A stretch of DNA of 64,000 nucleotides. Origin: a virus. Its lineage: Duplodnaviria; Caudoviricetes. Positions 1 to 58,443 of this stretch are shown piece after piece. The notes under the pieces were generated by a model. The model saw only the letters and a list, made by a program, of their open reading frames with translations, was not told the DNA's origin and did no database searches. Position numbers and translations under genes: made by a program. Numbering within the stretch: position 1 is the stretch's first letter; every line of letters starts with the position of its first letter. The stretch is from the IMG/VR virus record IMGVR_UViG_3300042197_001060, positions 7,157-71,156 of that record; one strand, written 5' to 3'.

Positions 1-672
1 ACAAGCAATATCCAATGCTTTTTTAGTTGCAATTGAAATCGTTGATTGATTGAATTTCACTTCATCAACAGTCGCATCGGATAAGAATGTCAATTCTCTT
101 GTTGTAGTTGCTTCACCCAATCCAGATGCTCCGAATACTACACCAGTCTCTGCATTAGTAAAACGAACTTGCAAACCGATACGAGTTACCATCATATTCT
201 TAACTCCATCCTTTAGATTTACGGTCTCATCCTCTGATACTGAATAATCGTAACATTCAATTGTCACAAAGTATTCCGCTAAATTTATTTTACCAAACCC
301 ATCCAATGCGTTTTCAGCTATTCCTGCTTGCGATGCTTGGAATTGTTTAACCATTCGGTTCTTAATTTCGGTTTTATCTTCGGTAAATTTGAAACGATTG
401 AGGTTTTCTAAATATTCCATTGAGATATTAGCCACACCCAAACCTACTCTTTTCTCTTTGAGTTCTGGATATAGTTCATACATCTCATCACTAATACCTG
501 CTTTTAGAATTTGAATTGGAATTTGACGACCTTCATAATCTAAAAATTGAGAGATGTCAATAGCAGTTTCAAATGATGCTTTGTATTGTTCAGTCTTTGT
601 AGTTCCTATGGTTTGAGCTACCGCAACACTGCTTAACAAACAAAAACTTAATAATGCGAATAATTTTTTCAT
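1..672 (-). CDS. CsgG/HfaB-like secreted protein (3' end beyond window)
   Basis: Not in the ORF track. Manual translation from ATG at 672 gives MKKLFALLSFCLLSSVAVAQTIG...GLGVANISMEYLENLNRFKFTE...GFGKIKLAEYFVTIECYDY...IGLQVRFTNAETGVVFGASGLGEA, open to base 1. Sec signal peptide plus the pattern of the CsgG/TolB-N fold. Confidence 0.65.
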   Translation of the reverse strand, partial: MKKLFALLSFCLLSSVAVAQTIGTTKTEQYKASFETAIDISQFLDYEGRQIPIQILKAGISDEMYELYPELKEKRVGLGVANISMEYLENLNRFKFTEDKTEIKNRMVKQFQASQAGIAENALDGFGKINLAEYFVTIECYDYSVSEDETVNLKDGVKNMMVTRIGLQVRFTNAETGVVFGASGLGEATTTRELTFLSDATVDEVKFNQSTISIATKKALDIAC

Positions 673-687
673 ACATATGTCTTTTCT

Positions 688-696
688 TATAAATAT
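688..696 (-). promoter_or_regulatory. ATATTTATA motif, candidate phage late promoter
   Basis: Identical 9-mer at 688, 8292, 21195 and 58435, each just upstream of a minus-strand gene start. Confidence 0.5.
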
Positions 697-727
697 AAAA
701 AAAGGGAGAAATTATAGTTTCTCCCTT
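697..727 (-). terminator. Rho-independent terminator
   Basis: Perfect 10-bp inverted repeat AAGGGAGAAA (702-711) / TTTCTCCCTT (718-727) with a 6-nt loop, followed on the minus strand by a T run; lies downstream of 768..1013. Confidence 0.75.
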
Positions 728-767
728 AAAATATATCTGCCCTTCCTACAGTTAAAAGATATATTTA

Positions 768-1013
768 TTATCCTTCTTCTTCAGATTTTCCTTTTTTTCC
801 GAAAATCTTACCAGCTTCGGCAATACCGAATGAACCTAATGTAATGATTACAAATGAATTGAAAATAGTATCACTAATTTCTAGTGTATTTCCCATAATA
901 CCAGTTACAATATCTGCACCAGCAAATATCGCCATAACTGCGAATGAACCAAATCCAACGATTGATTTTTCGTTGTAATCATTGTTGTCTTTGAAAATGT
1001 CTTTAAATGCCAT
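768..1013 (-). CDS. small two-TM membrane protein (holin-like)
   Basis: 81 aa, two hydrophobic segments, charged C-terminus. Confidence 0.55.
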   Translation of the reverse strand: MAFKDIFKDNNDYNEKSIVGFGSFAVMAIFAGADIVTGIMGNTLEISDTIFNSFVIITLGSFGIAEAGKIFGKKGKSEEEG

Positions 1014-1050
1014 AGTTTTTAATTTAAATTGTTAATACTATGTAACCCAT

Positions 1051-1674
1051 TTATCCCACCATTTCGGCGTCTTCGTCTTTTATCTTTCCACACTTCAAAC
1101 ACTCTTCATCACCATCACCATCTATATCACCCCAAATATGTTCACATTGTCTGTGTGCAAAGTAAACATCAATCTTACCATCACCATCGAAATCAATACC
1201 ATCCATTGTACCATCACCATCTTCATCCACTTCTACACCAACTTTAGTTTGTTGTTCGAAAGGACTTTCAATAGTTTTAGGATTATTTGGTTCTGATTTT
1301 ACATTTTGAATTGCTGCGGTAAATGCTTCTGGAATAATTGGAGAATATTGTTTAGGTTCAGAATCTTTCATATCTGCAGTATTACTTAAACTAACACCAT
1401 CTTCCTCATCCATTTTCTGAACTAACATTTTATCCTTATCAGTATCACTAAACCAATAGTCAATGATTTTACCATAAGAACCAATGAATGCTCCTAATAA
1501 TAATAAGAGAAGTTCTTTCCATTCCTGCCCAACAACAGTTTCTGTGTGAGTGGAGATTAAAATTCCAAATGTAGTAAACATAAATGTAATTAAGACGATT
1601 AAGGTCATTAACCATCTTCTATTCATCATTGAGTTTAATAAATCTTTAAATCCGCTTGGTTGTTGATTATTCAT
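1051..1674 (-). CDS. membrane protein with DxDGDG Ca-binding loops and a C-terminal Cys/His motif
   Basis: Two N-terminal TM helices; DEDGDG, DFDGDG and DIDGDG; CEHIW...CLKC. Confidence 0.6.
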   Translation of the reverse strand: MNNQQPSGFKDLLNSMMNRRWLMTLIVLITFMFTTFGILISTHTETVVGQEWKELLLLLLGAFIGSYGKIIDYWFSDTDKDKMLVQKMDEEDGVSLSNTADMKDSEPKQYSPIIPEAFTAAIQNVKSEPNNPKTIESPFEQQTKVGVEVDEDGDGTMDGIDFDGDGKIDVYFAHRQCEHIWGDIDGDGDEECLKCGKIKDEDAEMVG

Positions 1675-1680
1675 AGTTAA

Positions 1681-1995
1681 TTACCATTTAGGGGCTTCTT
1701 CTTTAAACTCATCACCTTCTTTTTTCTTCGCCTTTTCCACTGGCTTTTCTACAACTTTTTCTCTTTCAATGATTTTAGTTGTTCCACCACCTGCTGATTG
1801 TTGCTGCTCATTTGAGTTTGTGATGTTAATTACTGGAGCTGCTTGTTGAGCTGGAACAGGTTCATCACCTCCACCTGTTATTTGGGTTATACCCCATGTA
1901 CCTAAACCCATAACTGCGGTTGTTAGTACACCTATAATTGTCTTTTTTAATCCAGACAATGTCCCATCGTTGTTGTCTTCTGCTTCTTCTGACAT
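1681..1995 (-). CDS. hypothetical single-TM protein
   Basis: Hydrophobic stretch at aa ~20-38 and a low-complexity tail; tightly packed in the operon. Confidence 0.6.
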   Translation of the reverse strand: MSEEAEDNNDGTLSGLKKTIIGVLTTAVMGLGTWGITQITGGGDEPVPAQQAAPVINITNSNEQQQSAGGGTTKIIEREKVVEKPVEKAKKKEGDEFKEEAPKW

Positions 1996-2020
1996 TTTAT
2001 TACAGTTTTTGTTTATTAAA

Positions 2021-2392
2021 TTATAATTTGTTAAAATCTACTATTCCTAATTGATTGTTTTTTAAATCAAATAAGCCAATTCTATATGCAGATGACGGTA
2101 ATGCGGTGGTGTATACCTTTAAGATATTATCACCTACCTTTACATTCATCGTTTCTTTGGATACTACCCTATTGGATATATCAAAAATCTTAATCGTAAC
2201 TGGTTGTGCAATATCTACTTTAACATTCATTGCAACTTCGGTAGTTACGAATGATGTCTCTAATTTGATGCCAACTGAATTTTGTATTTTCAGTTCTTCA
2301 TTAACTTCTGTAATTGGTTGTTCGATTATAGTATCATCGATGCATCCACCCAATCCAAATATTAGTAATACTACTATAAGTATTCTTTTCAT
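2021..2392 (-). CDS. lipoprotein with T9SS C-terminal-sorting-domain-like Ig fold
   Basis: Lipobox LGGC; VTIKIFDISNRVV...GDNILKVYTTALPSSAYRI resembles the type A T9SS CTD pattern. Confidence 0.55.
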   Translation of the reverse strand: MKRILIVVLLIFGLGGCIDDTIIEQPITEVNEELKIQNSVGIKLETSFVTTEVAMNVKVDIAQPVTIKIFDISNRVVSKETMNVKVGDNILKVYTTALPSSAYRIGLFDLKNNQLGIVDFNKL

Positions 2393-2393
2393 T

Positions 2394-2747
2394 TTATTTA
2401 GTTATTATTAATGTTTTTCCAATTTCGGTTTTCGTAACATCTTCCAATAACAAATATAAATATCGTTTTTCTAATGAATTCGTATAAATCTTCTTTACAT
2501 TTTCACCAGAAGTTCCCTTAAATCTTTCTCTACTAATAACTTGTCCACTTTCTTTATCAATTAAAGTTAATGTATAAGTTCCATCGGATGGTAAATCAAA
2601 ATGCATATCTTGACCATTAACCACTCTATTTTCTTTCAAACTAAATATTTTTTGAGTAGTAGGTAGTGGGGGTGTAGGTAATTCAGGTTCGGTACAAGAT
2701 ACCACAACTCCTACACAAACCAACAATATAATTTTTATCCACTTCAT
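2394..2747 (-). CDS. lipoprotein with T9SS-CTD-like Ig fold (probable paralog of 2021..2392)
   Basis: Lipobox VVSC; FDLPSDGTYTLTLIDKESGQVISRE...GENVKKIYTNSL parallels the neighbour's SKE...GDNILKVYTTAL. Confidence 0.5.
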   Translation of the reverse strand: MKWIKIILLVCVGVVVSCTEPELPTPPLPTTQKIFSLKENRVVNGQDMHFDLPSDGTYTLTLIDKESGQVISRERFKGTSGENVKKIYTNSLEKRYLYLLLEDVTKTEIGKTLIITK

Positions 2748-2750
2748 ATC

Positions 2751-3650
2751 TTAAAATTGAAAGTTTGTCCCTATCATAAACATTAACGGGTTACTCTTTT
2801 TATATCCAACTGATTCACCTAATTTATCCCAAGTTGTATTATATCTGATATTAGTGTTTAATATAAATCTTTTAGTTATTTTCCAATCAATTGATGTACC
2901 ATAATATAAGTCCAAATTGAAATCATTTTTATAACCAAAATCAGATTCCCCATCTTTGAAATCTATATACACATCACTCATAGCAAATATTTGTGGTGAG
3001 ATATTAACTCTCTTTGTTTTAAGGGTATAGATGTACATTAACATTCCTTTGTAAGTAGTTTGTGATGATGCCGGCACAATTGGATATATGTTTTTTACCC
3101 AATTACCATTTTCATCAACAATATATTTTCCTTCCCAAGCACCTTCAGATTCTCCCCAAAATGTTTTACCTGCAGTTAAACTATATCCAAATGTTCCAAA
3201 CTTTTTAGTTCTAAACACATCTACGAATGATAGGTTAATATCCTTTTGAAAATCAAAATCAGTTGAATAAAATGTTTGTAAAGTAGTTGTTCTCTTTTCG
3301 GAATTTCTACTAAATCCATATCCCACACCATAATAATTCCATATAGGATTTATTGATGCTGTAAATGAGTGTCCCCATTGTCCATTCATTGATGATTTAC
3401 TATATCCTAAATTAAGAGTAGTAGATACCTGCTTTCCAATTATACCAACTGAAAGGTTTGATGAGGATAATACATCTTTTGAAAAATCTACATAAGATTG
3501 CAATATGCCTACATCGTTCCAATCATCACTTTCTCCAAATAATTCTTTTGGTGATAATTGTAGAGTATCAGGTATTGATGGAGTTTGAGAATACCCCCAA
3601 ATTTGTACTGTGAGTATAAAAATAAGAGTAATTATAAACTGTTTCATCAT
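2751..3650 (-). CDS. putative outer-membrane beta-barrel protein
   Basis: Signal peptide, aromatic/Gly-rich alternating strands, C-terminal MIGTNFQF ending in Phe (BAM beta-signal-like). Confidence 0.65.
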   Translation of the reverse strand: MMKQFIITLIFILTVQIWGYSQTPSIPDTLQLSPKELFGESDDWNDVGILQSYVDFSKDVLSSSNLSVGIIGKQVSTTLNLGYSKSSMNGQWGHSFTASINPIWNYYGVGYGFSRNSEKRTTTLQTFYSTDFDFQKDINLSFVDVFRTKKFGTFGYSLTAGKTFWGESEGAWEGKYIVDENGNWVKNIYPIVPASSQTTYKGMLMYIYTLKTKRVNISPQIFAMSDVYIDFKDGESDFGYKNDFNLDLYYGTSIDWKITKRFILNTNIRYNTTWDKLGESVGYKKSNPLMFMIGTNFQF

Positions 3651-5932
3651 TTTAATATTACTTTTAATTGTTTTCCATCTTTATTAACTGCATCGGTTGT
3701 TGATATTGATGTTAAACCTAATATATCCGTTGTGTTATCCGTTGGTGTAAATATTATTTTATATTCAGTTGTTTTGTCTAATATAGTAGAACCATCAGAA
3801 ACCAATGAACCAACATTAATAAAACTACCTCTGTTAATTCCATAGTTAGTAGGGTTTCCTTTTGTAGTAAATTCTACCTTTTCAAATTTTAATTTACTAT
3901 TATCATAATTTAATTGAAATTGAGTTCCAACTAATTCTTGTTGTAGTGGGTCTACTGATAGTGTTACAATAATACTATTACCTACAATCTCACTCATTAT
4001 TATCACATTTACTTCATTTGTAATCGAATTACTCATTACACTCATACTTCTAACCGAATTACTACTAACACTACTTACACTTTGTTGTGCTGAATGTGAA
4101 AGGTTTACATCGCCCAACCAAGTTACATTTATATTGTATGTGTTATTTAAACTACCTAATGTAAACGGAATTAGATTACGAGTTGAATTGAATTTAGTTC
4201 CCCAATTTGTTGTTGTTATCGCATCGTAATCTGATTTATTATATAACTTCATCAAATAAGTTAATGCGGTAGATTGTGAAAGTGATTGAACGCCTGTAAG
4301 ATGTTGTAATAATTTGTATGTATCTGATTCGTTAAATATACCATTACCATCCACATCTGCATTTAAATACTGAATACCATTTGTTAATCCCATCCCACTT
4401 TGATTTCCAAATATACCACCATCAGCCAATTCCTTAAATGCTAAATACACATCCGATACACCAACGATACTATTATATAATGTGTTTAGTTCCGTTTGAT
4501 TAGAATGTGTTAATTCCATTCCATGTGGTTTGTATGCTAATATTGGTGAAAAAGTAAATTCAGCCTGCAATCCATAAAATCCATTACCTGCTCTTATATT
4601 TTGTGCGAAAGATGAACCACTAAAATTAAATTGTGTTGCGGTATAAATGTAAACTTCAGTCCAACCATTTGAATCATACGAATTAAATGTAACAGGCCCG
4701 TTCCATAAATCAAATAGTTGTAAGCTTGAAATCATAGATGGTTGTGATACAATACTATTTACTTCTCTACTATCGATACCAACTCTATATCTTTGGTTTG
4801 TAGCATCGTATTCATAAATCACACACCACTCTACTTGCCCAGAAGTTGTTGTTGCTCTAACACCATTTAAAACTTTTGCAGTATCCAATAAACTTGTCAA
4901 ATCAACTTTACCCAATCCACTTAATTGTCTAGCAGTTCCGTTTACTGCATTCCAATTGTTATTTGTATATGTGTATCCTTTTGCTGTGAATTTAGTTTCA
5001 TCTACATTACTACCAAAATCAACATTGAATGTTGCTCTCAATAATTCTCCGTTTGAGTGAGTTACACTATTGGTATAAAATTCAGTAAATGTTGCATCAT
5101 CGGGATTAGTCCAAGTTCCAAATTCAACTACATAAGCACAAATAAAATGATTAGGTAAATCGTTCCATTGAGAACCACCTCCCCATTTAGTTACTGCGTA
5201 ATCTTCGTTACCGGCATTGTTTGGTTCACCACCTGCCCAGTTATTATATTGTCCAACTATGTTTCCAGCAGTTTGCCCGTTTGATGTTTTGATTAGAGTT
5301 CCAGCTTCAGGCCCTGCATCAATTCTCCATTGTCCTTCAACAACTTCATCGGTAAGAGCAAACCAAATACTAGATTGAGGAACATTGGCGAATATAAAAG
5401 CATCTTCCGAAGCAGATGTTATTGTTACCAAATATCCCGTCTGTCCTTTGAATGTTTGTTGAGATGATAATGTTCTTGCATTTATATAAGTTGCTCCTGT
5501 TGATATAGGTCTATAAAAGTGTCCATTAACTCCATTGTAAAAATATCCAACAGGATTTACAGTTGCAGCTACTGATAATTGAACATTACCTACTACTGAA
5601 CCCGTATTTATTTTTAGGGATGCCAATGCCGTATTAATATCAGCCATTGTTCCAGTTACTACTAAACGAGTTTTATTACCTGCTAAAGTAAATCCACTTG
5701 CAGCAGTTAGACCGATTGTTGTAGTTAGATAAAATGTAGTATTAGTCGATGGATTGATTAAACTGATTGATGTTAGAAGTGTTGCCGTTGAATTAAATCC
5801 ACTTAATACAAATCCACTTCCATCTTGCGCAGTTGTGGATGGTATAAAAGATTTAGAGTCCGGAGCAGATACACTCTGTCCGAACCCTAAAAATGATATA
5901 AATAAAAATAATGTAACTAATAAGTGTTTCAT
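3647..5932 (-). CDS. secreted C-type lectin domain protein with dockerin-like and cohesin-like domains
   Basis: Signal peptide; lectin motifs GYLVTITSASED, WFALTD, WAGGEPNN, WND; dockerin-like ADVDGNGIFNESD and GDVN; cohesin-like GTQFQLNYDNSKLKF. Start placed at MKHLL. Confidence 0.75.
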   Translation of the reverse strand: MKHLLVTLFLFISFLGFGQSVSAPDSKSFIPSTTAQDGSGFVLSGFNSTATLLTSISLINPSTNTTFYLTTTIGLTAASGFTLAGNKTRLVVTGTMADINTALASLKINTGSVVGNVQLSVAATVNPVGYFYNGVNGHFYRPISTGATYINARTLSSQQTFKGQTGYLVTITSASEDAFIFANVPQSSIWFALTDEVVEGQWRIDAGPEAGTLIKTSNGQTAGNIVGQYNNWAGGEPNNAGNEDYAVTKWGGGSQWNDLPNHFICAYVVEFGTWTNPDDATFTEFYTNSVTHSNGELLRATFNVDFGSNVDETKFTAKGYTYTNNNWNAVNGTARQLSGLGKVDLTSLLDTAKVLNGVRATTTSGQVEWCVIYEYDATNQRYRVGIDSREVNSIVSQPSMISSLQLFDLWNGPVTFNSYDSNGWTEVYIYTATQFNFSGSSFAQNIRAGNGFYGLQAEFTFSPILAYKPHGMELTHSNQTELNTLYNSIVGVSDVYLAFKELADGGIFGNQSGMGLTNGIQYLNADVDGNGIFNESDTYKLLQHLTGVQSLSQSTALTYLMKLYNKSDYDAITTTNWGTKFNSTRNLIPFTLGSLNNTYNINVTWLGDVNLSHSAQQSVSSVSSNSVRSMSVMSNSITNEVNVIIMSEIVGNSIIVTLSVDPLQQELVGTQFQLNYDNSKLKFEKVEFTTKGNPTNYGINRGSFINVGSLVSDGSTILDKTTEYKIIFTPTDNTTDILGLTSISTTDAVNKDGKQLKVILK

Positions 5933-5933
5933 A

Positions 5934-7583
5934 TTATTCAATGATTAAATCTATTTTGTTACCCCTTGCATCAACTGCATCTGAAAGAACAAAGAAGAAT
6001 AATCCTGCTGTATTTGATAATTGAACCTTTGGTGTGAATATTAATTTGTAAGGAGTACCGGTTTTGATTCTAGCAGTTTTTAGCTGGTCAATAGAACCAA
6101 ATGTCAATCTACCACCATCGTTGGTTGAGAAATTGGTTACGGTATTTCCTGCATCAAATATAATGTTATCCAAATTTAATTTATTATTATCATAATCCAT
6201 AATAACTTGTAATCCTGCTAATTCTTCTTTTGTTAAATTTGTAGTTAATACAACCTTATTATTTTCCAAAGTAATTGATACATTTAATTTAGCAGTTTCT
6301 AAATCTTCAGTTCTATATGCCATTATAGATGGTACACTCATAGATTTTTTTAAATTCACCTCACCATTAATTGAATTTGTGAATTGACCAGCAGTTATTC
6401 TACTTGCAATTTCAGTTGGGTCTGATGAATGTGACCAGTTTAAATCACCACCCCATGCAAATACTGCGTAAACCTCTTTAATTGGTGTATCAATAGTTAC
6501 CTTATACTTTGGAATACCATCTAACCAACTTTGATTTAGTAAACCACTAAACCATCTCCAAGATGTTGCAGTGTTTGTTGGTATAAATGCGTTTGTAGAT
6601 ACATCTTGCCCCATTACATACGCAAAAGAATAATATGAATCTGATTCATTAAATGTATCATCGTTTTTGGTAATGTTACCCACTTTCTTTTCCAAATTAG
6701 AGTATGTAAAGAAGTTTGGAGTTCCACTAATATCGGTTTGTGAATGCCCTAAAAAAGCCTTATATGAATCAGATACTGTAATTACATTGTTCATCCAAGC
6801 TTTTGATGATGCAGGTGATACAAATACACCAACCTCATCCCCAACTTTTACTTGCGTTGTGAAAAGTGCTTCACCACTCGAATCTAATGGTAATTGTGCA
6901 ATTGATTGTTGTGAAAAATCAATAGTACCATCCGTTTTCAACTTCATTAACTGAACATAATGGTCTGTAATAGCGTATCCTTGTGGGAATAGTACTCTAA
7001 CTTTAAATTGAGATGTGTTACCCGTTACATTTGTTAATGATAAACTTGTAGCATTACGGGTGATAGGTGCGATATTTGCAGATGCATCACTAATAGCATA
7101 CGCCAAATCCAACTTATGAATATCATTATAAGTGTTCTGGTCTTTCAATACAAATTTTTGAGTTGCTATATCACCATTGATTGCAGCATCGGTTCTTTGA
7201 ACAGTCAATTGTCCAACATTCCAATCGGCATTTACTGCATACCCCCAAGGTGTAGTTTGATATTGTTCATATAAGCTAGTAGCTGCTTTATTTGGAGCTG
7301 GGGTGAATTTGTAGTTATCCCATCCAGTATAGAATGTTTGAACTGAATTACCTTGTGAGAATACCGTACTGTTTGGCACCATTGCAAGTGCTTTGTTATT
7401 GAACGAATATCTCAACCAAAAATAACGAGGAGTTGTAGTTCCTCTATCTATGGTATATTTTACAGTCAGAGTATCACCAACTTGATAAGGAGGTGCAGGT
7501 GTTACAGATTGTGACACGGTTATTTGACCGAAAGATATTAGAGATATTAAAAATATCCCTAAAAACAATAAGAATTTTTTCAT
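5934..7583 (-). CDS. secreted protein with cohesin-like and dockerin-like domains (paralog of 3647..5932 C-terminal half)
   Basis: Signal peptide; VGDTLTV...LRYSFNNKAL; ITVSD...FNESD...GGDLNWSHS; C-terminal LAGLQVIMDYDNNKL. Start placed at MKKFLL. Confidence 0.7.
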   Translation of the reverse strand: MKKFLLFLGIFLISLISFGQITVSQSVTPAPPYQVGDTLTVKYTIDRGTTTPRYFWLRYSFNNKALAMVPNSTVFSQGNSVQTFYTGWDNYKFTPAPNKAATSLYEQYQTTPWGYAVNADWNVGQLTVQRTDAAINGDIATQKFVLKDQNTYNDIHKLDLAYAISDASANIAPITRNATSLSLTNVTGNTSQFKVRVLFPQGYAITDHYVQLMKLKTDGTIDFSQQSIAQLPLDSSGEALFTTQVKVGDEVGVFVSPASSKAWMNNVITVSDSYKAFLGHSQTDISGTPNFFTYSNLEKKVGNITKNDDTFNESDSYYSFAYVMGQDVSTNAFIPTNTATSWRWFSGLLNQSWLDGIPKYKVTIDTPIKEVYAVFAWGGDLNWSHSSDPTEIASRITAGQFTNSINGEVNLKKSMSVPSIMAYRTEDLETAKLNVSITLENNKVVLTTNLTKEELAGLQVIMDYDNNKLNLDNIIFDAGNTVTNFSTNDGGRLTFGSIDQLKTARIKTGTPYKLIFTPKVQLSNTAGLFFFVLSDAVDARGNKIDLIIE

Positions 7584-7584
7584 T

Positions 7585-8238
7585 TTATTTTTCCTCAAAT
7601 AGATTAGTTATAAGTTTTTCCGAAGCTTTCTTTAAGGCGTTACTTAAAGATGTTTGGTTGAACTTACCACCTTCATCTACTATGAGAGTTGACATAGAGA
7701 TTTCGGATGATGATTCTTCAACCATAACCTCTTTTGCCTTTTTGCCATCCTTATAAAGTGTTCCCTTTAATCTGATGACAACTTCTTCTTCATTTTTGTG
7801 AAATACGGAGATGTTTTTCTTTGTTGTTAAAACATCTAAATATACAATTTGAACTGCCAATTTGTTTGGGGCATTTGGAGTTAAATTTAATCCTTTTTCT
7901 TGCAAATATTCTTCTAATATGTTTTTAACACCAAATTCTAATTGTCTGTTTCCGGCTAATTTTCCAATTTTTACATTATTTGTTACTGATTCAATCCAAA
8001 TATGGTCATCTGCGTTATACCAAATATTTTGAGGTGAATCTTTGTGTCCACCGGAAATTGTATAATCGAACCAAGTTACAATAGATTGGGTTAATTCTCG
8101 TTGACCAGTCACCTCCAACGCTACCATAAAAATTTGGAAACAGAGTGCGGTTGATATGAATAAAAGTCCAAACCAACCAAGTATGGTCAGTATGTAATCA
8201 CCTACGGATGGTAATAAAACTGTTTTTATATAATTCAT
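7585..8238 (-). CDS. membrane-anchored CsgG/TolB-N-like protein
   Basis: N-terminal TM segment; FGVKNILEEYL and C-terminal KFNQTSLSNALKKA, similar to KFNQSTISIATKKA in the <1..672 protein. Confidence 0.5.
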   Translation of the reverse strand: MNYIKTVLLPSVGDYILTILGWFGLLFISTALCFQIFMVALEVTGQRELTQSIVTWFDYTISGGHKDSPQNIWYNADDHIWIESVTNNVKIGKLAGNRQLEFGVKNILEEYLQEKGLNLTPNAPNKLAVQIVYLDVLTTKKNISVFHKNEEEVVIRLKGTLYKDGKKAKEVMVEESSSEISMSTLIVDEGGKFNQTSLSNALKKASEKLITNLFEEK

Positions 8239-8291
8239 AAAGATTATAGTTTTTAATTAAAACAAAATTAAATAACCTTTATTGTACTACA

Positions 8292-8300
8292 TATAAATAT
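8292..8300 (-). promoter_or_regulatory. ATATTTATA motif heading the envelope operon
   Basis: Exact copy of the recurring 9-mer, 54 nt upstream of the ATG at 8238. Confidence 0.5.
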
Positions 8301-8305
8301 AACTA

Positions 8306-9139
8306 TTATCCTAATAAATGATAATATTCTTTAAAATGTTTTATTCTATCTGCTAATCCAATAGTTCCACCATTTACTCTTTTAGTAATAGATGTTACTA
8401 CTGCATCAGTTGACCCACCATCGGCCAATTTGTTCAGTCCATTTTTAGACCAAAACCATGCTGCTGATAGTAATGCATATTTCCCACTTACCACATCAGG
8501 ATTAGAAGTAATATTTTCTCCGATTGCAGTACCGAATTGGGTATAATTATCCTTTCCTGTCAATTGGATATATCCTCTGCCGCGAAACTTATATCCATCA
8601 CCACTTGCTTCATCGCCATTTGCCATACGATTTGCATATACTTTGTTAGCAATCTTCTCCGGCTTTCTTTCGTAAGGTAAAGCTGATTCTAAAGTTGGAA
8701 AATATTTCTTAAAAATACCATTCAAACCTTTTGCAGAATAGTTTAGATTTTCTTGTGTTGCTCTGAATCCACCACTTTCGTGTCCACATTGTGCAAGAAA
8801 GTGTGCCAATCTCAATGGAGTATTGATTTGGAATTTAGCCGCAGTATTAGGAATCATTGAGATTACTGCATCAGGAATATGTCCTTTTAGTTTTTCCAAC
8901 TTCAATGATCCTGAAGATACAATTGGTGCAGATGGTGTATGTGTTGGTGCGTTTCCTCCCATTATTTTTGCCCAAGTTGCCGGCCCTACAATACCATCGG
9001 GTGTTAAACCATTTTTTGCCTGCCATTCTTTTACGGCTGCTTCGGTTTTAGGTCCAAAGTTAGTTACCGCAGGTGAAATACCTAATTTCTCCTGCATTAA
9101 TTTTACGTTTTCGTTGTTATCTCCTTTTTTAAGTAGCAT
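8306..9139 (-). CDS. endolysin: peptidoglycan-binding domain plus GH19 lysozyme/chitinase domain
   Basis: LLKKGD...FGPKTEAAVKEWQ...DGIVGPATW; HFLAQCGHESGGF, ENLNYS, FRGRGYIQLTG, VNGG. Confidence 0.9.
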   Translation of the reverse strand: MLLKKGDNNENVKLMQEKLGISPAVTNFGPKTEAAVKEWQAKNGLTPDGIVGPATWAKIMGGNAPTHTPSAPIVSSGSLKLEKLKGHIPDAVISMIPNTAAKFQINTPLRLAHFLAQCGHESGGFRATQENLNYSAKGLNGIFKKYFPTLESALPYERKPEKIANKVYANRMANGDEASGDGYKFRGRGYIQLTGKDNYTQFGTAIGENITSNPDVVSGKYALLSAAWFWSKNGLNKLADGGSTDAVVTSITKRVNGGTIGLADRIKHFKEYYHLLG

Positions 9140-11792: not shown

Positions 11793-12092
11793 TTACTTTT
11801 TAGTATTTGAGTTTTTGTTTTGAGAAGGCTTTCTCCCTCTGCGGGCACCATCTCCTTTAGCAGCACTTACTACATCTTTAGATTGTTTTACAACCTCTTT
11901 AGCAGCGGTTGCAACATCTTTAACTTCTTCTGCAATTCGTTTTGCTCGTACTTTTACTTCTTCTACTTTTTCTTCAATAGCATCTGGAATTAAGTTTCCA
12001 TCTTTATCTTCATATATCTTTGTTTTTTTAAGATAAATTGTAGTTGCTGTAATTACGGCTGCTAATACTAGAATAACGATAAATGTTGTCAT
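11793..12092 (-). CDS. hypothetical membrane-anchored protein
   Basis: N-terminal TM, DKDGNLIPD loop, helical region, basic tail. Confidence 0.65.
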   Translation of the reverse strand: MTTFIVILVLAAVITATTIYLKKTKIYEDKDGNLIPDAIEEKVEEVKVRAKRIAEEVKDVATAAKEVVKQSKDVVSAAKGDGARRGRKPSQNKNSNTKK

Positions 12093-15116: not shown

Positions 15117-16760
<1,644 letters not shown>

Positions 16761-21194: not shown

Positions 21195-21203
21195 TATAAA
21201 TAT
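21195..21203 (-). promoter_or_regulatory. ATATTTATA motif, candidate late promoter
   Basis: Exact copy, 25 nt upstream of the ATG at 21170. Confidence 0.5.
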
Positions 21204-29835: not shown

Positions 29836-30309
29836 TTATTTATTTTTTAATTGCGATGCTTCATCAATTCCTGTAGCAGGATTATATCGTGGAGTTAATG
29901 AAGTAATATCCATATCTAATTGAATTACTTTACCAAGCCCACTTAACTTATAAGTTCTATACGCTTCGTTTGTAATTATTGGAACTTTCATAACTACCTT
30001 TTGATAGAAGGCCTTTGCTCCACCTTTCATTTCTAACAGTTCGGTATCTTCATTTACAAACTTGCCAAAAAACTTTTTTATTAATTGAGGATTGATATTG
30101 GTTACTTTTACAGCATGTACAATATCTTTTACCTTTGAAACAAATAGTGTATATATAATTGGAGCAGTAGATTCACCGTATCTACCTTTAGTTCCATCTA
30201 TATATTCATATTCTTTTATAAGATAGAAATTTGCTCTTGTCATTTGATTTGGAACAATATAATTTCTATCATCTATAAATCGTCTATATAGTGGACTATA
30301 GTTTTGCAT
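29836..30309 (-). CDS. hypothetical protein (weak resemblance to DNA end-protector-like proteins)
   Basis: 157-aa ORF with an AYRTY motif; the assignment is tentative. Confidence 0.45.
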   Translation of the reverse strand: MQNYSPLYRRFIDDRNYIVPNQMTRANFYLIKEYEYIDGTKGRYGESTAPIIYTLFVSKVKDIVHAVKVTNINPQLIKKFFGKFVNEDTELLEMKGGAKAFYQKVVMKVPIITNEAYRTYKLSGLGKVIQLDMDITSLTPRYNPATGIDEASQLKNK

Positions 30310-31577
30310 TATTTATTTAACATTTTTAGTTTAGGTAATTGGAGTTGTTGGAACTTTGGTTGTATCTTACTATAAATACCATATTGATTCAAAATTCCAT
30401 CAAACAATTTAGTCATTTTTTCCAATCCAAAGTTTTGTTTATTTTGTTTGCCCAATTGTAAAGATGCCGTTTTGTGTTTGTCATAGTTCTTATAAACATC
30501 TTTTATGGATGATAATGCCTTTGAAATGTTTACATTAAACCATTGTGATTCTTTTAATAAGAATTGGTCTGCTGCTGATTCATGCACTGGTTTCAATTCA
30601 CCTTCCAATAAAACAGCTCCTTGCTTTAAGAAATCCAAATGTCCACTCCAATTAGATACAATTACAGGCTTACCCGTCAAACTAAACTCTAATAGGGGTC
30701 TACCAAACCCTTCACCCTTTGTAAAATTTAACATTGCTTTTACTTTCGGATGTTCGTATAATCCATTCATTTGAGATGGAGTTAAATCACCATGCAATAA
30801 GTAAACGGGAACTTGTCCATAATCTTTACCTAATACTTCTCTAATTTTTTTAATAGTGGTTTCTCTATCCATTACAGAGAATCCTGCTGAAGATGTTTTA
30901 AGAACTAATGCGGGTTTAACCTTTTCATTCTTAAATGCCATTGCGAATGTTTTAATCATCATTCCCACATTCTTTCTATCTTCTCCCAAATCACCTCTCA
31001 ACCAATGTCCTACGAATAGGAATGCAAACTCTTCTTTGATTGCATCTAATTCAGTAATATTCTCAAAGGTTTTGGTTCCAAAATCAGCTTCATCAAATCC
31101 TTCGAAAAGAATTTCAACAGGTTTTTGAATTCTATGTTGAGCAACTAATTGTCCGCTTTGTTTATCTTGCTCATTATATACCGTATCTACTAAACTTTTC
31201 TTTGAATGTTCGGACGGAACTATAATTAAATCCATTCGATTACATCCATGAATCCAATCTAATGCACAATGTGTAGTTTCGATTGCTGCAGTAATACCAA
31301 TGTTATAGAATCCCAAAGGTTGAAATTCATTTGGAACTGTAACTTGAATATAAATGTCAGGTTTTTCTGTAATCTGTGGGGTGATATTATCTACCGCCCA
31401 CTTATGAAATTGATTATCATAATTAAGAGCATCCATTGGGGTATTCCCCCAACGAGTGCTAATAATTTTAATATCAAACTTATCTAATTTATATAAAGAG
31501 TGTAACAAATCTCTCGCGTGGTCACCATATCCACTTCTTGTCGCAATTGGTGCCTGAAATACTAATGTTGGTTTCAT
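30309..31577 (-). CDS. GT4 (GT-B) glycosyltransferase
   Basis: TRSGYG, DRKN, KGEGFGRPLLE...GKPVI..WSGHLDF. Confidence 0.85.
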   Translation of the reverse strand: MKPTLVFQAPIATRSGYGDHARDLLHSLYKLDKFDIKIISTRWGNTPMDALNYDNQFHKWAVDNITPQITEKPDIYIQVTVPNEFQPLGFYNIGITAAIETTHCALDWIHGCNRMDLIIVPSEHSKKSLVDTVYNEQDKQSGQLVAQHRIQKPVEILFEGFDEADFGTKTFENITELDAIKEEFAFLFVGHWLRGDLGEDRKNVGMMIKTFAMAFKNEKVKPALVLKTSSAGFSVMDRETTIKKIREVLGKDYGQVPVYLLHGDLTPSQMNGLYEHPKVKAMLNFTKGEGFGRPLLEFSLTGKPVIVSNWSGHLDFLKQGAVLLEGELKPVHESAADQFLLKESQWFNVNISKALSSIKDVYKNYDKHKTASLQLGKQNKQNFGLEKMTKLFDGILNQYGIYSKIQPKFQQLQLPKLKMLNK

Positions 31578-31578
31578 A

Positions 31579-32961
31579 TTATAACTCTATTAACTTAAAT
31601 TTTTTCTTTGGTTTCCAATTTTCAAATGCTCCTTCCATACCATCTGATAGTGTTTTACACATTGCTTCTCTGCTCAACAAACCATCACCTAACATCCACT
31701 TTCTACCTTTTAATGTTGCTGCTTTTCTATCTTCTTTTGGAGTTAAATACCATTCCATAATCAATGGTGATATATCTTCGAAATCAACCCTATCATCAAA
31801 GATATAGGGAGTAGGAACTGAACCTGTAGTTGAACGAACTGGCCAAATTGGTTTAACCCAATCTCCCCAAACTACACCTGCTTTTTTATGTCTATCGTGT
31901 AATGAACCAATCTCTACATAATCTTCTGCGGTTAGTAATTTGCCAGTTGTAATATCTCTAAACCCACACTGGTCTTGCAATCCACCAGTCACTGTTACAA
32001 TAATTGGAGTTCCTGCCATTACTGATTCTGCAGTTGCTAATCCAAATCCTTCGTTAGATGCTACGTTAATTGTTACATCTCCCAAATTATAAAGATAGTT
32101 CAATTGTTCTTCTGTATATCGGTTTGGAGCAAATACTACATTTGTTTCAGGTGAACAACATTCTGCTATAGTTCTCGATAAATCCGTACCATGCTCTTCT
32201 ACTGGGTTAGTATGCATCAATAAACATACTTTACTTCTATGCTCTGGTGCTAATGCCTCCACAAATTTATCAAATGCAAGAATTACATCAATTGGTTGTT
32301 TTCTACGAATGTTTCTATTGTTCCAATATAAAACAAAATCGTATTCTTTATCACCAAATATTTCTTTTTTGAAACCAGCTGGTACTTCAACTGGCTTATA
32401 TAATTCCGAATTGATACCATGTGGTACATAACTCACTTGCCAATCAGCAGGTGGTGTCCAATGCTTTTCTTTATCCCATCCCCAAACTCTACGAGTAATC
32501 CCATAAGTTTGTTTTGAAATACATCCAATCCAATCACAACTTTCGTAATAATCTCTGTTGTATTTTGGGTCTGGTAAATCATCCCAAATGTGATAAAAGA
32601 AAAGGGGAACTGATTGACGAATTTCATGCTCAATTTCATACAACCAAATCCAATATCTCGGGTCTGTAAAGTGTAAGATTGCATCAGGTTTTTCTACCAT
32701 CAATAATTGACGAATAATGCCTGGATTTCCATAACCATCCGATGGGTAAATTTTTACATTCGCATCTTTTACACCCGTTTGTTCTCTAACACTTTCGTTT
32801 AAATCTAAAATCTTACCTGCTTCGGGATGTTTGATTGCTGCACCTAATTGAACCCAATCATATTTATCAACCGTTCCCATAACTAATTGTTTGGAAACAT
32901 TAGCGATGCCACTGGCCATTCGCAAGTCGTCCGATAATAATAAAATCTTCTTTTTTGCCAT
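31579..32961 (-). CDS. GT4 (GT-B) glycosyltransferase
   Basis: VPHGI, NRNIRRK, NEGFGLATAESVMAGTP...TGGLQDQ. Confidence 0.85.
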   Translation of the reverse strand: MAKKKILLLSDDLRMASGIANVSKQLVMGTVDKYDWVQLGAAIKHPEAGKILDLNESVREQTGVKDANVKIYPSDGYGNPGIIRQLLMVEKPDAILHFTDPRYWIWLYEIEHEIRQSVPLFFYHIWDDLPDPKYNRDYYESCDWIGCISKQTYGITRRVWGWDKEKHWTPPADWQVSYVPHGINSELYKPVEVPAGFKKEIFGDKEYDFVLYWNNRNIRRKQPIDVILAFDKFVEALAPEHRSKVCLLMHTNPVEEHGTDLSRTIAECCSPETNVVFAPNRYTEEQLNYLYNLGDVTINVASNEGFGLATAESVMAGTPIIVTVTGGLQDQCGFRDITTGKLLTAEDYVEIGSLHDRHKKAGVVWGDWVKPIWPVRSTTGSVPTPYIFDDRVDFEDISPLIMEWYLTPKEDRKAATLKGRKWMLGDGLLSREAMCKTLSDGMEGAFENWKPKKKFKLIEL

Positions 32962-58434: not shown

Positions 58435-58443
58435 TATAAATAT
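58435..58443 (-). promoter_or_regulatory. ATATTTATA motif, candidate late promoter
   Basis: Exact copy, 25 nt upstream of the ATG at 58410. Confidence 0.5.

Follow-up and report, generated by a model that had tools for sequence, protein, structure and literature searches.

A co-conserved block of ten predicted exported proteins with CsgG-like, lectin and cohesin domains in a candidate large Flavobacterium phage

Overview

Ten consecutive minus-strand open reading frames (ORFs), named p10 to p1 in transcription order, fill positions 1-8238 of the analysed stretch of viral DNA (64 000 nucleotides of IMG/VR record IMGVR_UViG_3300042197_001060; the window). Together they form a block that probably alters the infected cell's surface in a manner not yet described; no published description of such a block was found. 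We put at about even the chance that the block acts as a single functional unit, its exported products serving a large T4-like phage with Flavobacterium-type hosts to rebuild the envelope of the infected cell.

Layout and genomic context

Export signals were scored by a simple Kyte-Doolittle scan (first 60 residues, score of at least 1.4), by which crude measure an N-terminal hydrophobic segment was found in 10/10 block genes versus 2/66 other minus-strand ORFs of at least 75 aa in the window. The segment is kept in the relatives of p8 (47/47), p9 (57/61), p1 (59/61) and p10 (60/61) and is weaker in those of p4 by the same scan (28/61). Each block product is thus predicted to be Sec-exported, lipobox-bearing or membrane-anchored, which bears out the initial annotation of ten co-oriented genes that all encode exported or anchored products. 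The adjoining endolysin of that annotation was likewise recovered (8306-9139, with matches to PG_binding_1 and Glyco_hydro_19), and no curlin repeat (PF07012) was found across the 71-kb record, in agreement with the absence of a curli subunit first noted for the window.

The block continues beyond the window with n13, a paralogue of the p7 barrel, and more envelope genes downstream (contig 2351-6845). Its genomic surroundings consist of replication and auxiliary genes, without virion genes; a GT2 and a metallophosphoesterase encoded nearby are read as envelope-glycan modifiers. The record is 32% complete (CheckV), relatives of the block lie on contigs of 200-335 kb and a cultured relative infects Flavobacterium sp. 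LMO8, which makes the earlier guesses of a jumbo phage and a Flavobacterium host plausible.

Conservation of the block

Co-conservation was assessed in 46 IMG/VR loci that are centred on p10 and offer 10 kb of room or more. Genes p8 and p4 are present in all 46 loci, p9, p6, p5, p3 and p1 in 44 each, p2 in 32 and p7 in 27, and gene order is collinear in 45/46; the block is therefore co-conserved in related phages, as the initial reading supposed. An endolysin of the type found here (q11) lies upstream of the block in just 21/134 loci and the remaining flank genes recur in few, so that the flanks are variable. A fixed order between variable flanks indicates that the block travels as a unit. All of the relatives are fairly close (45-97% identity) and the co-occurrence therefore partly reflects shared descent.

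The cultured Flavobacterium phage immuto (host Flavobacterium sp. LMO8) holds a reduced version of the block and keeps the matching parts on separate genes, with the lectin on gp013 and the cohesin on gp015. Its gp016 matches p4 (E = 1.5e-19), gp017 matches p1 (E = 1e-88), gp018 matches n13 and gp019 matches the p10 domain. The layout is scaffold-like, with the cohesin on one protein and dockerin-like tails (judged by eye) on others. The cohesin protein gp015 also matches Por_Secre_tail (34.6 bits, cut-off 27); this predicted type IX secretion system (T9SS) sorting domain points, indirectly, to the cell surface and is the sole feature to do so.

Small membrane proteins and lipoproteins

The first gene product, p10 (217 aa, 7585-8238, minus strand), has an anchor at residues ~23-41 and an alpha/beta domain at ~75-215 that weakly resembles YajG and TraT. 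It scores 23.4 bits against PF03923 (Lipoprotein_16; cut-off 25, E = 5.4e-5) and 23.2 bits in the own-genome search; among 40 family members Lipoprotein_16 matches 22 and TraT six (best E = 7.5e-6), and in the ESM Atlas p10 falls in viral clusters in which 14-52% of members carry PF03923. At E <= 1e-3, 215 relatives were found among 1.84 billion representatives, mostly forms of ~155-170 aa with a plain signal peptide. No profile similarity between p10 and p1 was detected by hhalign (probability 14%).

Protein p2 (81 aa, 768-1013, minus strand) has two membrane segments, also found in 30/38 relatives, and a charged C-terminus, a shape judged holin-like by eye; family searches gave no match. The membrane protein p3 (207 aa, 1051-1674, minus strand) has a single strong transmembrane segment (residues 22-40) in 61/61 sequences and an Asp/Gly-rich (DxDGDG), Cys-containing C-terminal part, and had no significant match in family searches. 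In p4 (104 aa, 1681-1995, minus strand) an acidic N-terminus is followed by a Gly-rich membrane segment, a Pro/Gln/Ala stretch and a Lys/Glu-rich tail that ends in Trp in 61/61 sequences; its match to DUF7196 (E = 1e-4) is below the cut-off.

The lipoprotein p5 (123 aa, 2021-2392, minus strand) has an LGGC lipobox with acidic residues after the Cys; the lipobox is present in 61/61 sequences and Cys17 is invariant. Its paralogue p6 (117 aa, 2394-2747, minus strand; hhalign probability 99%, E = 3e-18) has a lipobox-like motif in 51/61 sequences. The window p5 matches DUF3244 at E = 0.067. In the joint p5/p6 family (50 sequences) DUF3244 matches 25 (best E = 8.8e-5) and Por_Secre_tail 23 (best E = 3.7e-4), all below the cut-off. 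The two were initially described as CTD-like lipoproteins: the lipoprotein part stands, and the likeness of these predicted small beta-sandwiches to the T9SS sorting domain or DUF3244 is weak and below the cut-off throughout.

An alternative reading is that the block is not one machine and that the genes encode independent envelope proteins, namely lysis proteins together with separate exclusion or adhesion morons, which would be neighbours only through joint expression as one transcription unit. Here p2 would be the holin, the N-terminal module of p10 a holin or antiholin, and p4 with p5 and p6 spanin-like. The size, two membrane segments and charged tail of p2 fit such a role, as do the size and layout of p10, which are those of T4 holin T, and the occurrence of its N-terminal part as separate ORFs of ~75 aa in relatives; family searches, however, matched no holin or spanin. 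The adjoining GH19 endolysin is signal-less and needs a holin, but few loci have such an endolysin upstream, and that of immuto is ~6 kb from the block, behind tRNA genes. While the dispensability of p2 and p7 in many loci and the gene subset retained by immuto agree with independent genes, the order that persists despite variable flanks does not. O-spanins are short and Pro-rich, unlike p5 and p6, which appear to be folded lipoproteins of ~100 residues, and lysis has no place for a lectin, a cohesin or a CsgG-like part. This explanation is considered unlikely.

The CsgG-like protein

Of p1 (1-672, minus strand), 224 of 239 residues lie in the window, and the gene extends a further 47 nt beyond its start. 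The protein has a signal peptide without a lipobox and a domain with a predicted CsgG/HfaB-like fold. The AF2 model (pLDDT 76, pTM 0.70) has CsgG (4uv2, E = 4.5e-7) as its best Foldseek match in the PDB. By VIA, CsgG (6l7a, Z = 11.7, rmsd 3.9, 175 residues aligned) is followed by Cj1090c (Z = 10.3) and PelC (Z = 9.1), with LptE and FlgT (both Z = 7.8) as further neighbours. In BFVD the best match is a protein from an uncultured phage that bears the name CsgG (E = 7.2e-7), and the closest named ESM Atlas clusters are CsgG/HfaB (0.93-0.94). Pfam CsgG (PF03783) matched neither p1 nor any of 36 family members; a bridging bacterial homologue (Ignavibacteriales, profile E = 4e-48) passes this model (28.6 bits, cut-off 20.8).

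A lipobox-like motif occurs in 2/61 p1 sequences, so that p1 is without the CsgG lipid anchor. The initial annotation had proposed a pair of CsgG-like proteins; the fold is retained for p1, minus the lipobox, and p10 is unrelated to p1. Two of 301 genomes of the family of the Flavobacterium MAG contain p1, and since both match at E ~1e-82 these copies look like the phage gene itself; p1 is accordingly read as phage-specific.

Outer-membrane barrels

From its model, p7 (299 aa, 2751-3650, minus strand) looks like a generic outer-membrane beta-barrel, as does n13. A signal peptide and a strongly conserved N-terminal extension of ~40 residues precede a barrel of ~12-14 strands, and the final residue is Phe in 61/61 sequences; mean column identity is 87% (34 sequences). 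The AF2 model is all-beta with a low-confidence mean pLDDT of 50, and its Foldseek matches in the PDB are outer-membrane barrels in 50/50 of those listed (best E = 2.3e-4), including NanC, PcoB, TamA, BamA, FapF and intimin. No PorP_SprF match was found for the barrels, p7 included. The last 220 aa of n13 are paralogous to p7 (hhalign probability 96.4%, E = 1.4e-9); ahead of this barrel n13 has a long low-complexity stalk that bears an N-terminal domain, an autotransporter-like layout. The barrel assigned at the outset can thus be kept on a low-confidence model, as an optional component absent from 19/46 loci.

Lectin and cohesin proteins

The largest product, p8 (764 aa, 3647-5941, minus strand; likely true start at an ATG three codons in), comprises a signal peptide, an N-terminal domain, a C-type lectin domain, a single dockerin-like F-hand and a C-terminal cohesin domain. 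The lectin domain (residues ~139-274, 5120-5527, minus strand) scores 21.6 bits against Lectin_C (cut-off 22.6, E = 3.7e-4), which matches 24/25 family members (best E = 1.4e-6). Its PDB profile match is CEL-I (4wqq, E = 5.9e-5), followed by collectins, and it shares 40% identity (tblastn, E = 1e-12) with the immuto 'lectin C-type domain-containing protein'. The motifs EPN (239-241) and WND (259-261) are taken to be the Ca2+/sugar site, and E239, P240, N241, E246, W259, N260 and D261 do not vary across 25 sequences; p8 is accordingly predicted to be a C-type lectin with an intact site.

The dockerin-like Ca2+-loop and helix (residues ~518-548, 4298-4390, minus strand) score 13.8 bits against PF00404 (cut-off 22.9) and cover model positions 26-56 of 57 only. 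Dockerin_1 matches 7/25 family members (best E = 1.3e-3), and the loop residues D529, G532, G534, N537 and D540 are invariant. In a six-frame search of the phage's own genome the cohesin domain (3674-3988, minus strand) reached 24.9 bits against PF00963 (cut-off 24.1, E = 7.8e-7), and it was not listed in the whole-protein hmmscan of p8; Cohesin matches 15/25 family members (best E = 2.3e-5).

Protein p9 (554 aa, 5934-7598, minus strand; likely true start at an ATG five codons in) has a signal peptide, an N-terminal part and a C-terminal region shared with p8 (p8 486-764 versus p9 266-554, hhalign probability 99.5%, E = 9e-23). Pfam Cohesin does not match the window p9 itself, and the cohesin call rests on relatives: 12/25 family members match (best E = 4.1e-6), and a p9-type protein encoded by relative L041 aligns with the cohesin of immuto gp015 (E = 1.6e-14). 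For the joint p8/p9 C-terminal profile the best PDB match is the cohesin ScaB (4ums, E = 0.025). In both proteins a dockerin-like loop stands ahead of the terminal cohesin-type domain. What had been called a cohesin/dockerin lectin therefore holds for the lectin, the p8 cohesin and, as cohesin-like, p9, with the dockerin reduced to one sub-threshold F-hand. No T9SS sorting domain was found in p8 or p9, which may consequently remain periplasmic.

Possible function

If the block is one envelope-rebuilding unit, the host BAM machinery would place the Sec-exported barrels in the outer membrane, p1 would assemble into a ring within this membrane or at its surface, and p2-p4 and p10 would link the complex to the inner membrane. 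Proteins p8 and p9 would be brought to the cell surface and joined by Ca2+-dependent cohesin-dockerin contacts into a lectin-bearing layer that may bind mannose/GlcNAc-type glycans. Such a layer could mask or engage glycans or receptors that belong to the host surface itself, in which case further phages would be excluded and progeny kept from sticking to debris; alternatively, it could tether an infected cell to particles or to further cells. Curli-type pores pass unfolded small subunits, and multidomain proteins of 550-760 aa are not an obvious cargo. This reading is further weakened by the lack of a T9SS domain on p8 and p9, by a p1 that has no lipobox and falls below the Pfam CsgG model, by the low pLDDT of p7 and its absence from many loci, and by a dockerin that is half-length and sub-threshold.

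In another arrangement p8 and p9 would stay in the periplasm, the lectin binding peptidoglycan GlcNAc or lipopolysaccharide/capsule intermediates and p1 forming not a pore but a soluble or peripheral ring like PelC, LpoB or LptE-type proteins; the module would then stabilize or re-tune the envelope while a large phage goes through its long infection cycle. We regard this periplasmic arrangement as improbable. EPN-type lectins bind GlcNAc/mannose-type sugars, the nearby GT2 and metallophosphoesterase would modify envelope glycans, and the Sec signals of p8 and p9 come without a T9SS domain; the immuto cohesin protein, however, is T9SS cargo by Pfam and so predicted to be exported beyond the outer membrane. 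The fold neighbours PelC, LptE and FlgT of p1 are periplasmic or outer-membrane-associated non-pores, and p1 has no lipobox, but CsgG outranks every other fold and aligns over 175 residues. The two predicted outer-membrane barrels, one with a stalked N-terminal domain, also argue against a periplasmic module.

A virion role for p8 and p9, as adhesins or tail fibres that the other genes help to assemble, is very improbable. Both are large and beta-rich, and phage fibres commonly bear lectin and Ig-like adhesion domains (PMC7824862), but the signal peptides of p8 and p9 are conserved, the proteins encoded beside them include lipoproteins and a predicted outer-membrane barrel ending in Phe, immuto gp015 carries a T9SS domain, no PHROG structural family matched and the surrounding genes serve replication and auxiliary functions; the block is thus very unlikely to encode ordinary virion parts, the alternative to the initial reading. 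The conservation of the block, the folds, most of which are as first supposed, and the virion question accordingly leave the initial reading unrefuted.

Comparison with known systems

The predicted fold of p1 recalls curli secretion (CsgG with CsgE/F/A/B) and the Caulobacter holdfast anchor (HfaB with HfaA/D). HfaB has a role in surface adhesion, with which the p1 locus would also be concerned. The bacterial homologue ties p1 to Pfam CsgG, although p1 differs from CsgG in lacking the lipobox and a direct Pfam match. Unlike curli and holdfast loci, the block has no curlin repeats and no recognizable CsgE/F or HfaA/D, and the neighbours of p1 are barrels, cohesin proteins and lipoproteins.

Cellulosome-type and non-cellulosomal Bacteroidota cohesin/dockerin proteins are resembled by the p8 cohesin, the cohesin-like domains of p9 relatives, the conserved dockerin-type Ca2+-loop of p8 and the separation of cohesin and dockerin-like tails on different immuto proteins. 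In contrast to cellulosomes, the block is without carbohydrate-active enzymes and its payload is a C-type lectin; p8 has one F-hand rather than the two of a dockerin, cohesin and dockerin-like parts share a chain in this phage, and the genes are carried by a lytic-type large phage.

With T9SS cargo the block shares the above-cut-off Por_Secre_tail of immuto gp015 and, more faintly, the recurrent weak Por_Secre_tail and DUF3244 matches of the p5/p6 family. It differs in that no protein of the 71-kb record reaches the sorting-domain model, the p5/p6 domain is a lipoprotein body rather than a cargo tail, the barrels have no PorP/SprF match and no T9SS core genes were seen.

The weak TraT (6/40) and YajG (22/40) matches of p10 relatives recall lipoproteins that phages or plasmids use for surface exclusion, such as TraT (F), Llp (T5) and Cor. 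These, like the outer-membrane proteins recently surveyed in huge phages, are single genes, whereas eight to eleven genes are co-conserved here. Yuan & Chen (2026, bioRxiv 10.64898/2026.10.24.761521) counted 1,603 barrels encoded by phages, of which 678 came from freshwater. The terms cohesin, lectin, curli, CsgG, type IX and Flavobacter do not appear in their main text; the supplementary tables may list relatives of p7 or n13.

Upstream motif

The motif ATATTTATA was annotated as heading the block, and a copy (8292-8300, minus strand) indeed lies 54 nt upstream of the p10 ATG; it is promoter-like, and its role as a promoter is putative. A second copy (688-696, minus strand) lies 16 nt upstream of the p1 ATG. 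The eight copies in the window, all on the coding strand, are not above chance (5.6 +/- 2.2 expected; 17/100 shuffles reach eight). The core TATTTATA is found within 150 nt upstream of p10 in 43/81 distinct upstream regions of relatives, where it persists even when the flanking sequence differs.

Organization of the record and of the cassette

The record is a single linear IMG/VR virus entry of 71,156 bp, of which bases 7157-71156 form the window, and every gene lies on the minus strand. Its completeness was estimated at 32% (CheckV), which suggests a genome of roughly 220 kb. A family-B DNA polymerase encoded at 38626-41190 shares 49% identity with the polymerase of Microcystis phage Mel-JY01 and about 32% with those of T4-like cyanophages. 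Genes for GroEL, ribonucleotide reductase and glycosyltransferases lie near it; the phage-encoded GroEL chaperonin maps to 15117-16736 (minus strand; phrog_5725, E = 2e-179) and two adjoining glycosyltransferase genes map to 30309-32961 (minus strand; phrog_2170, E = 2e-20 and 1e-17).

Window positions 1-8238 are filled by ten ORFs, termed p10 to p1 in the order of transcription; the end of p1 lies 47 nt past the window start. A hydrophobic segment within the first 60 residues was found in all ten, against two of the 66 other minus-strand ORFs of the window, and these segments are largely kept in relatives. The description in the initial annotation of ten consecutive co-oriented genes for exported proteins, headed by the TATATTTATA motif and adjoined by an endolysin gene, thus stands: ATATTTATA sits 54 nt upstream of p10, and the upstream gene q11 encodes an endolysin with PG_binding_1 and GH19 domains and without a signal peptide.

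A second copy of ATATTTATA, at 688-696, lies 16 nt upstream of p1, and further copies occur on the coding strand at 21195-21203, 58435-58443 and 2455-2463, 16-71 nt upstream of start codons. The eight copies in the window do not exceed chance (5.6 +/- 2.2 expected); all eight are on the coding strand and five are placed 16-71 nt upstream of start codons. Of 81 distinct regions that precede p10 in relatives, 43 contain the core TATTTATA, the chance expectation for an 8-mer in AT-rich DNA being about 0.03 per region by our own arithmetic. ATATTTATA is a candidate phage-specific promoter element; its sequence corresponds to the T4 late-promoter core in reverse complement, with one additional base.

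Conservation in related loci

IMG/VR scans gave 223 confirmed relatives with p10, so that the cassette is not confined to one contig, and 111 with p7; 157 loci were kept. Many relatives come from aquatic samples, on contigs of 200-335 kb. The p7 search returned 877 protein clusters at E <= 0.001. A tblastn search across all 157 loci, in which p7 and p10 occur by design as the scan queries, recovered p9 in 148, p8 in 145, p4 in 126, p6 in 124, p5 in 123, p3 in 117 and p1 in 116, together with the q11 endolysin in 33 and a GT2 glycosyltransferase in 23.

A stricter count drew on 80 p10-centred loci, of which 46 extend for 10 kb or more beyond the start of p10. Within these 46, p8 and p4 were always present, p9, p6, p5, p3 and p1 were each found in 44, p2 in 32 and p7 in 27. 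The gene order was collinear in 45 loci; 17 loci have the full set of ten genes and 44 have eight or more. The gene n13, a paralogue of the p7 barrel downstream of the window, followed the cassette in 22 of the 46 loci and often falls beyond the fetched end. These counts define a core of p10, p9, p8, p6, p5, p4, p3 and p1, with p7 and p2 optional and the flanks variable. The anticipated co-conservation in related phages was therefore recovered, each core gene being present in 44-46 of 46 loci; the relatives are all 45-97% identical and shared descent contributes to the presence counts. A megablast search with 12 kb of the locus found no match in the phage collection.

The lectin and cohesin-like proteins p8 and p9

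The last ~280 residues are common to p8 and p9 (hhalign probability 99.5%). The Lectin_C family (PF00059) scored 21.6 bits in p8, just under the cut-off of 22.6, and was detected in 24 of 25 relatives (best E = 1.4e-6); the lectin domain matched lectins of the PDB from E = 5.9e-5. Residues 239-241 (EPN) and 259-261 (WND) do not vary. The Ca2+/mannose-type sugar site of animal C-type lectins is built from such residues, and p8 is predicted from its sequence to contain a C-type lectin domain with Ca2+/sugar-site residues.

In a six-frame search of the genome the C-terminus of p8 matched Cohesin (PF00963) with 24.9 bits, over the cut-off of 24.1. The family was found in 15/25 relatives of p8 and 12/25 relatives of p9; the window p9 itself gave no Cohesin match. 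The p8/p9-type proteins of three related loci (L041, L127 and L134) match the cohesin of the cultured Flavobacterium phage immuto directly (E = 1.6e-14 and 8e-10), and the best PDB matches of the joint C-terminal profile were cohesins, though only at E = 0.025 and 0.45. The dockerin-like part of p8 consists of one conserved Ca2+ loop and a helix. It scored 13.8 bits against PF00404 (cut-off 22.9), covering only model positions 26-56, one segment and half of the model, and Dockerin (PF00404) was found in seven of 25 relatives (best E = 1.3e-3). The two tandem Ca2+-binding F-hands of type I dockerins were not found in p8, which has one such segment. The lectin and cohesin parts of the cohesin/dockerin lectin initially proposed were thus upheld, whereas the dockerin part reached only a single F-hand scoring below the cut-off.

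The CsgG-like protein p1 and the upstream protein p10

The AF2 model of p1 (pLDDT 76) was compared with the PDB using Foldseek, and the best matches were CsgG chains (E = 4.5e-7, probability 1.0). Superposition on CsgG (VIA) gave Z scores of 11.4-11.7 with an rmsd of 3.5-4.0 over 163-176 aligned residues, followed by Cj1090c (10.3), PelC (9.1), LptE (7.8) and TraT (6.9). The model thus predicts for p1 the CsgG alpha/beta fold, including the long beta-hairpins. The top BFVD match is an uncultured-phage protein named CsgG, and the nearest named language-model clusters are CsgG/HfaB (0.93-0.94). No match of p1 to PF03783 was obtained at E <= 1, nor at E <= 10 in the own-genome search, nor in any of 36 family members, and the PDB profile search with p1 gave no match. 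A homologue with bacterial surroundings on an Ignavibacteriales MAG contig (35% identity, p1-profile E = 4e-48) scores 28.6 bits against PF03783, over the cut-off of 20.8; the sequence link of p1 to the Pfam CsgG family runs through this homologue and is transitive only.

CsgG is a lipoprotein. A lipobox-like motif was present in only two of 61 p1 sequences; the p1 consensus has an ...AQ-T end that resembles a signal peptidase I site. Residues 21-239 of p1 were also modelled as a complex of four copies, and the three runs scored 0.35, 0.08 and 0.73 where the mark was 0.42, which speaks neither for nor against oligomerization.

Among 301 genomes of the family to which a Flavobacterium MAG belongs, p1 was found in two (both E about 1e-82), which are most simply explained as phage contigs in bins. 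This rarity, together with the context of T4-type PolB, RNR and GroEL, speaks against both bacterial contamination of the record and a recent capture of p1 from the host. In the Ignavibacteriales locus (L162:10001-13871) the p1 homologue is followed by a shorter p1-like paralogue (204 aa, E = 9e-7) and then by an 825-aa transglutaminase-like protein and a CHASE2 adenylate/guanylate cyclase.

The proposed CsgG-like pair was reduced to one member, since p1 has the CsgG fold and p10 (7585-8238) shows no relation to it (hhalign probability 14%). The similarity of p10 to YajG (Lipoprotein_16, PF03923) amounted to 23.2-23.4 bits against a cut-off of 25. Among 40 relatives, Lipoprotein_16 was found in 22 (best E = 3.1e-6) and TraT (PF05818) in six (best E = 7.5e-6); the own-genome search gave no TraT (PF05818) match. 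Searches of PDB profiles with p10, including one with a deeper profile, returned chance-level matches only, and tblastn found no p10 match in the phage collection. The family is small: 1.84 billion representatives yielded 215 proteins at E <= 1e-3, and most members have 155-170 aa and a plain signal peptide. The membrane module formed by the first ~75 residues of p10 is a stand-alone ORF of about 75 aa in some relatives (e.g. L160:1073-1303), and many representatives of 70-76 aa match positions 1-80 of the p10 profile only. Judged by these stand-alone ORFs, p10 appears to be a small membrane protein fused to a YajG/TraT-like domain. With TraT among the fold neighbours of p1, p10 may share a broad fold class with p1.

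The predicted barrel proteins p7 and n13 and the small proteins p2 to p6

The per-column identity of p7 is 87% over 34 sequences, and a C-terminal Phe was present in 61/61. Its model has an all-beta structure of about 12-14 long strands, at a pLDDT (50) that does not allow the strand number or the barrel family to be assigned, and all 50 of the Foldseek matches listed were outer-membrane barrels. In line with the beta-barrel annotated in the cassette, p7 is predicted from the model to be a generic outer-membrane beta-barrel with a signal peptide and a C-terminal aromatic residue. There was no match to PorP/SprF (PF11751) at E <= 10, a weak test in which 0/14 control genomes reached the cut-off, and none in NCBIfam or in the PDB profile search; the homologues found were close relatives without Pfam labels, so the barrel family is not named.

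The 467-aa n13 (contig positions 3266-4669, minus strand, outside the window) starts with a signal peptide, followed by a domain of ~100 residues that contains two Cys, a low-complexity stalk of ~140 residues (Ser/Thr/Pro/Glu/Lys) and a C-terminal barrel, a layout that by eye is autotransporter-like. Its C-terminal 220 residues are paralogous to p7 (hhalign probability 96.4%). In many relatives, as in immuto (gp018), a homologue comes after p1, and n13 is probably part of the module.

The small proteins p5 and p6 are paralogous (hhalign probability 99%), with a lipobox in 61/61 and 51/61 sequences, respectively. At sub-threshold level their family matched DUF3244 in 25/50 and Por_Secre_tail in 23/50 (best E = 3.7e-4), the Por_Secre_tail-like region being on lipoproteins and not on cargo tails; the PDB profile search gave nothing meaningful. 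Of the CTD-like lipoproteins first annotated, the lipoprotein character is therefore retained, but the CTD similarity stays below the cut-off. No family was found for p2, p3 and p4. A C-terminal Trp is present in 61/61 sequences of p4 (1681-1995). For the ten cassette proteins there was no significant PHROGs family, and NCBIfam gave chance-level matches only.

The cultured relative immuto

Among 50,697 phage records only four, all of Flavobacterium phage immuto (160 kb; host Flavobacterium sp. LMO8), have p1 (51% identity) and the lectin. The immuto genes concerned encode a secreted nuclease (gp012, record annotation), a lectin (gp013; Lectin_C, 57.3 bits), a secreted protein without an assigned family (gp014), a cohesin protein with a T9SS sorting domain (gp015), and matches to p4 (gp016, E = 1.5e-19), p1 (gp017, E = 1e-88), n13 (gp018, E = 1e-11) and the p10 domain (gp019, E = 4e-7). 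In GenBank gp014 and gp016-gp019 are named 'hypothetical protein'. The p4 homologue, which ends in ...ESW, lies directly upstream of the p1 homologue. Both domains of gp015 scored over their cut-offs, Cohesin with 36.7 bits and Por_Secre_tail (PF18962) with 34.6 bits against a cut-off of 27; the 71-kb record itself had no PF18962 match at E <= 10. When the p8, p9 and p5/p6 profiles were aligned with the single gp015 sequence (hhalign), the expected segments aligned at probabilities of 3-9%, which are not significant. In the article describing the Baltic Flavobacterium phages (PMC7077304), the terms lectin, cohesin, immuto, secretion and outer membrane do not occur. With its host, immuto forms a cultured pair carrying a reduced module, which opens the question to bench testing.

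Interpretation

The cassette is a genuine, conserved set of genes for exported proteins, and the families to which its parts belong operate at the outer membrane and on the cell surface. That the cohesin/lectin proteins act extracellularly is indicated best, if indirectly, by the T9SS tag of the immuto cohesin protein. Taken together, these points favour the reading that the phage installs an envelope complex carrying a lectin layer linked by cohesin-dockerin contacts, to which we assign roughly even chances. The purpose would most likely be the masking of receptors or glycans, with adhesion as the alternative.

A co-transcribed set of independent lysis and exclusion proteins is rather unlikely; the GH19 endolysin gene adjoins the cassette here, and in 21 of 134 loci an endolysin of the q11 type lies no more than 2.5 kb upstream. 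It is similarly doubtful that the module is a secretion-and-display organelle of the phage's own. Such an organelle would use a CsgG-family ring and the barrels to export and anchor p8 and p9, which would self-assemble by cohesin-dockerin contacts into a Ca2+-dependent lectin coat on the infected Flavobacterium cell, a viral counterpart of the cellulosome scaffold. The p5/p6 CTD-mimics would occupy the host type IX translocon, so that gliding adhesins serving as receptors would not be exported, and the coat would mask receptors and stick infected cells to glycan-rich particles or to nearby hosts. A periplasmic role is less probable still. A role in the virion is very improbable; no virion genes were recognized among the ten larger ORFs scanned.

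As a system, the module is unlike curli, the cellulosome and T9SS. Unlike the lipidated CsgG of curli, p1 lacks a conserved lipobox, and a search of the 71-kb record, which covers some 32% of the genome, gave no curlin-repeat (PF07012) match at E <= 10, in agreement with the earlier remark that no curli subunit is visible and that this is not a standard curli operon. In contrast to a cellulosome, no enzymes were seen and p8 has one F-hand; in contrast to T9SS, no core genes were seen. No description of the module was found in the literature, most subscription journals and supplements lying outside the scope of the search. A survey of outer-membrane barrels encoded by phages, and of further envelope proteins in huge phages, appeared as a preprint in October 2026 (10.64898/2026.10.24.761521); its main text does not contain the words cohesin, lectin, curli, CsgG, type IX or Flavobacter. 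In passages of a comparative paper on jumbo phages (PMC7824862), lectin domains are mentioned on virions only, and cohesin, dockerin and CsgG not at all.

Should these genes function jointly, large flavobacterial phages would spend about 8-10 kb on equipping their host with foreign proteins of the outer membrane and cell surface. This would exceed the exclusion lipoproteins and porins, each encoded by a single gene, that have been described to date, and contacts of the virocell with particles, neighbours and other phages would change in lakes and estuaries. Both its cohesin-dockerin-type assembly and its CsgG-family protein would then be the first of their kind to take part in the life cycle of a phage.

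Flanking genes and environmental RNA

Directly downstream of p1, outside the window, the contig (L158) carries at 5141-6845 (minus strand) genes for a GT2 glycosyltransferase, a 96-aa membrane protein, GtrA-like as judged by eye only, and a calcineurin-like metallophosphoesterase. The GT2 and phosphoesterase pair recurs around the cassette in relatives at differing positions, which suggests modification of envelope glycans. Also outside the window on the minus strand are a 143-aa lipoprotein with a Gln/Asn/Pro/Arg/Tyr-rich tail (4669-5100), present in only two of 157 loci, and a secreted DNA/RNA non-specific endonuclease with a signal peptide (Endonuclease_NS, 2351-2953, E = 1.7e-19), homologues of which are found next to the module in immuto (gp012) as well as in 14 loci.

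In an estuary metatranscriptome run (X1), 14% of the sampled words were present. Its contigs, 90-99% alike, cover parts of p1, p3, p4, p8, p9, p10 and the endolysin gene and leave about 2150-3680 and some p8 bins uncovered; they are contigs of relatives from an RNA library that may contain DNA, so they do not show transcription, and no meaning attaches to the gaps.

A 99-aa protein encoded at 11793-12092 (minus strand) carries a strong membrane segment near its N-terminus and a tail rich in Lys, Glu and Ala, and is one of only two window ORFs outside the cassette with such a segment.
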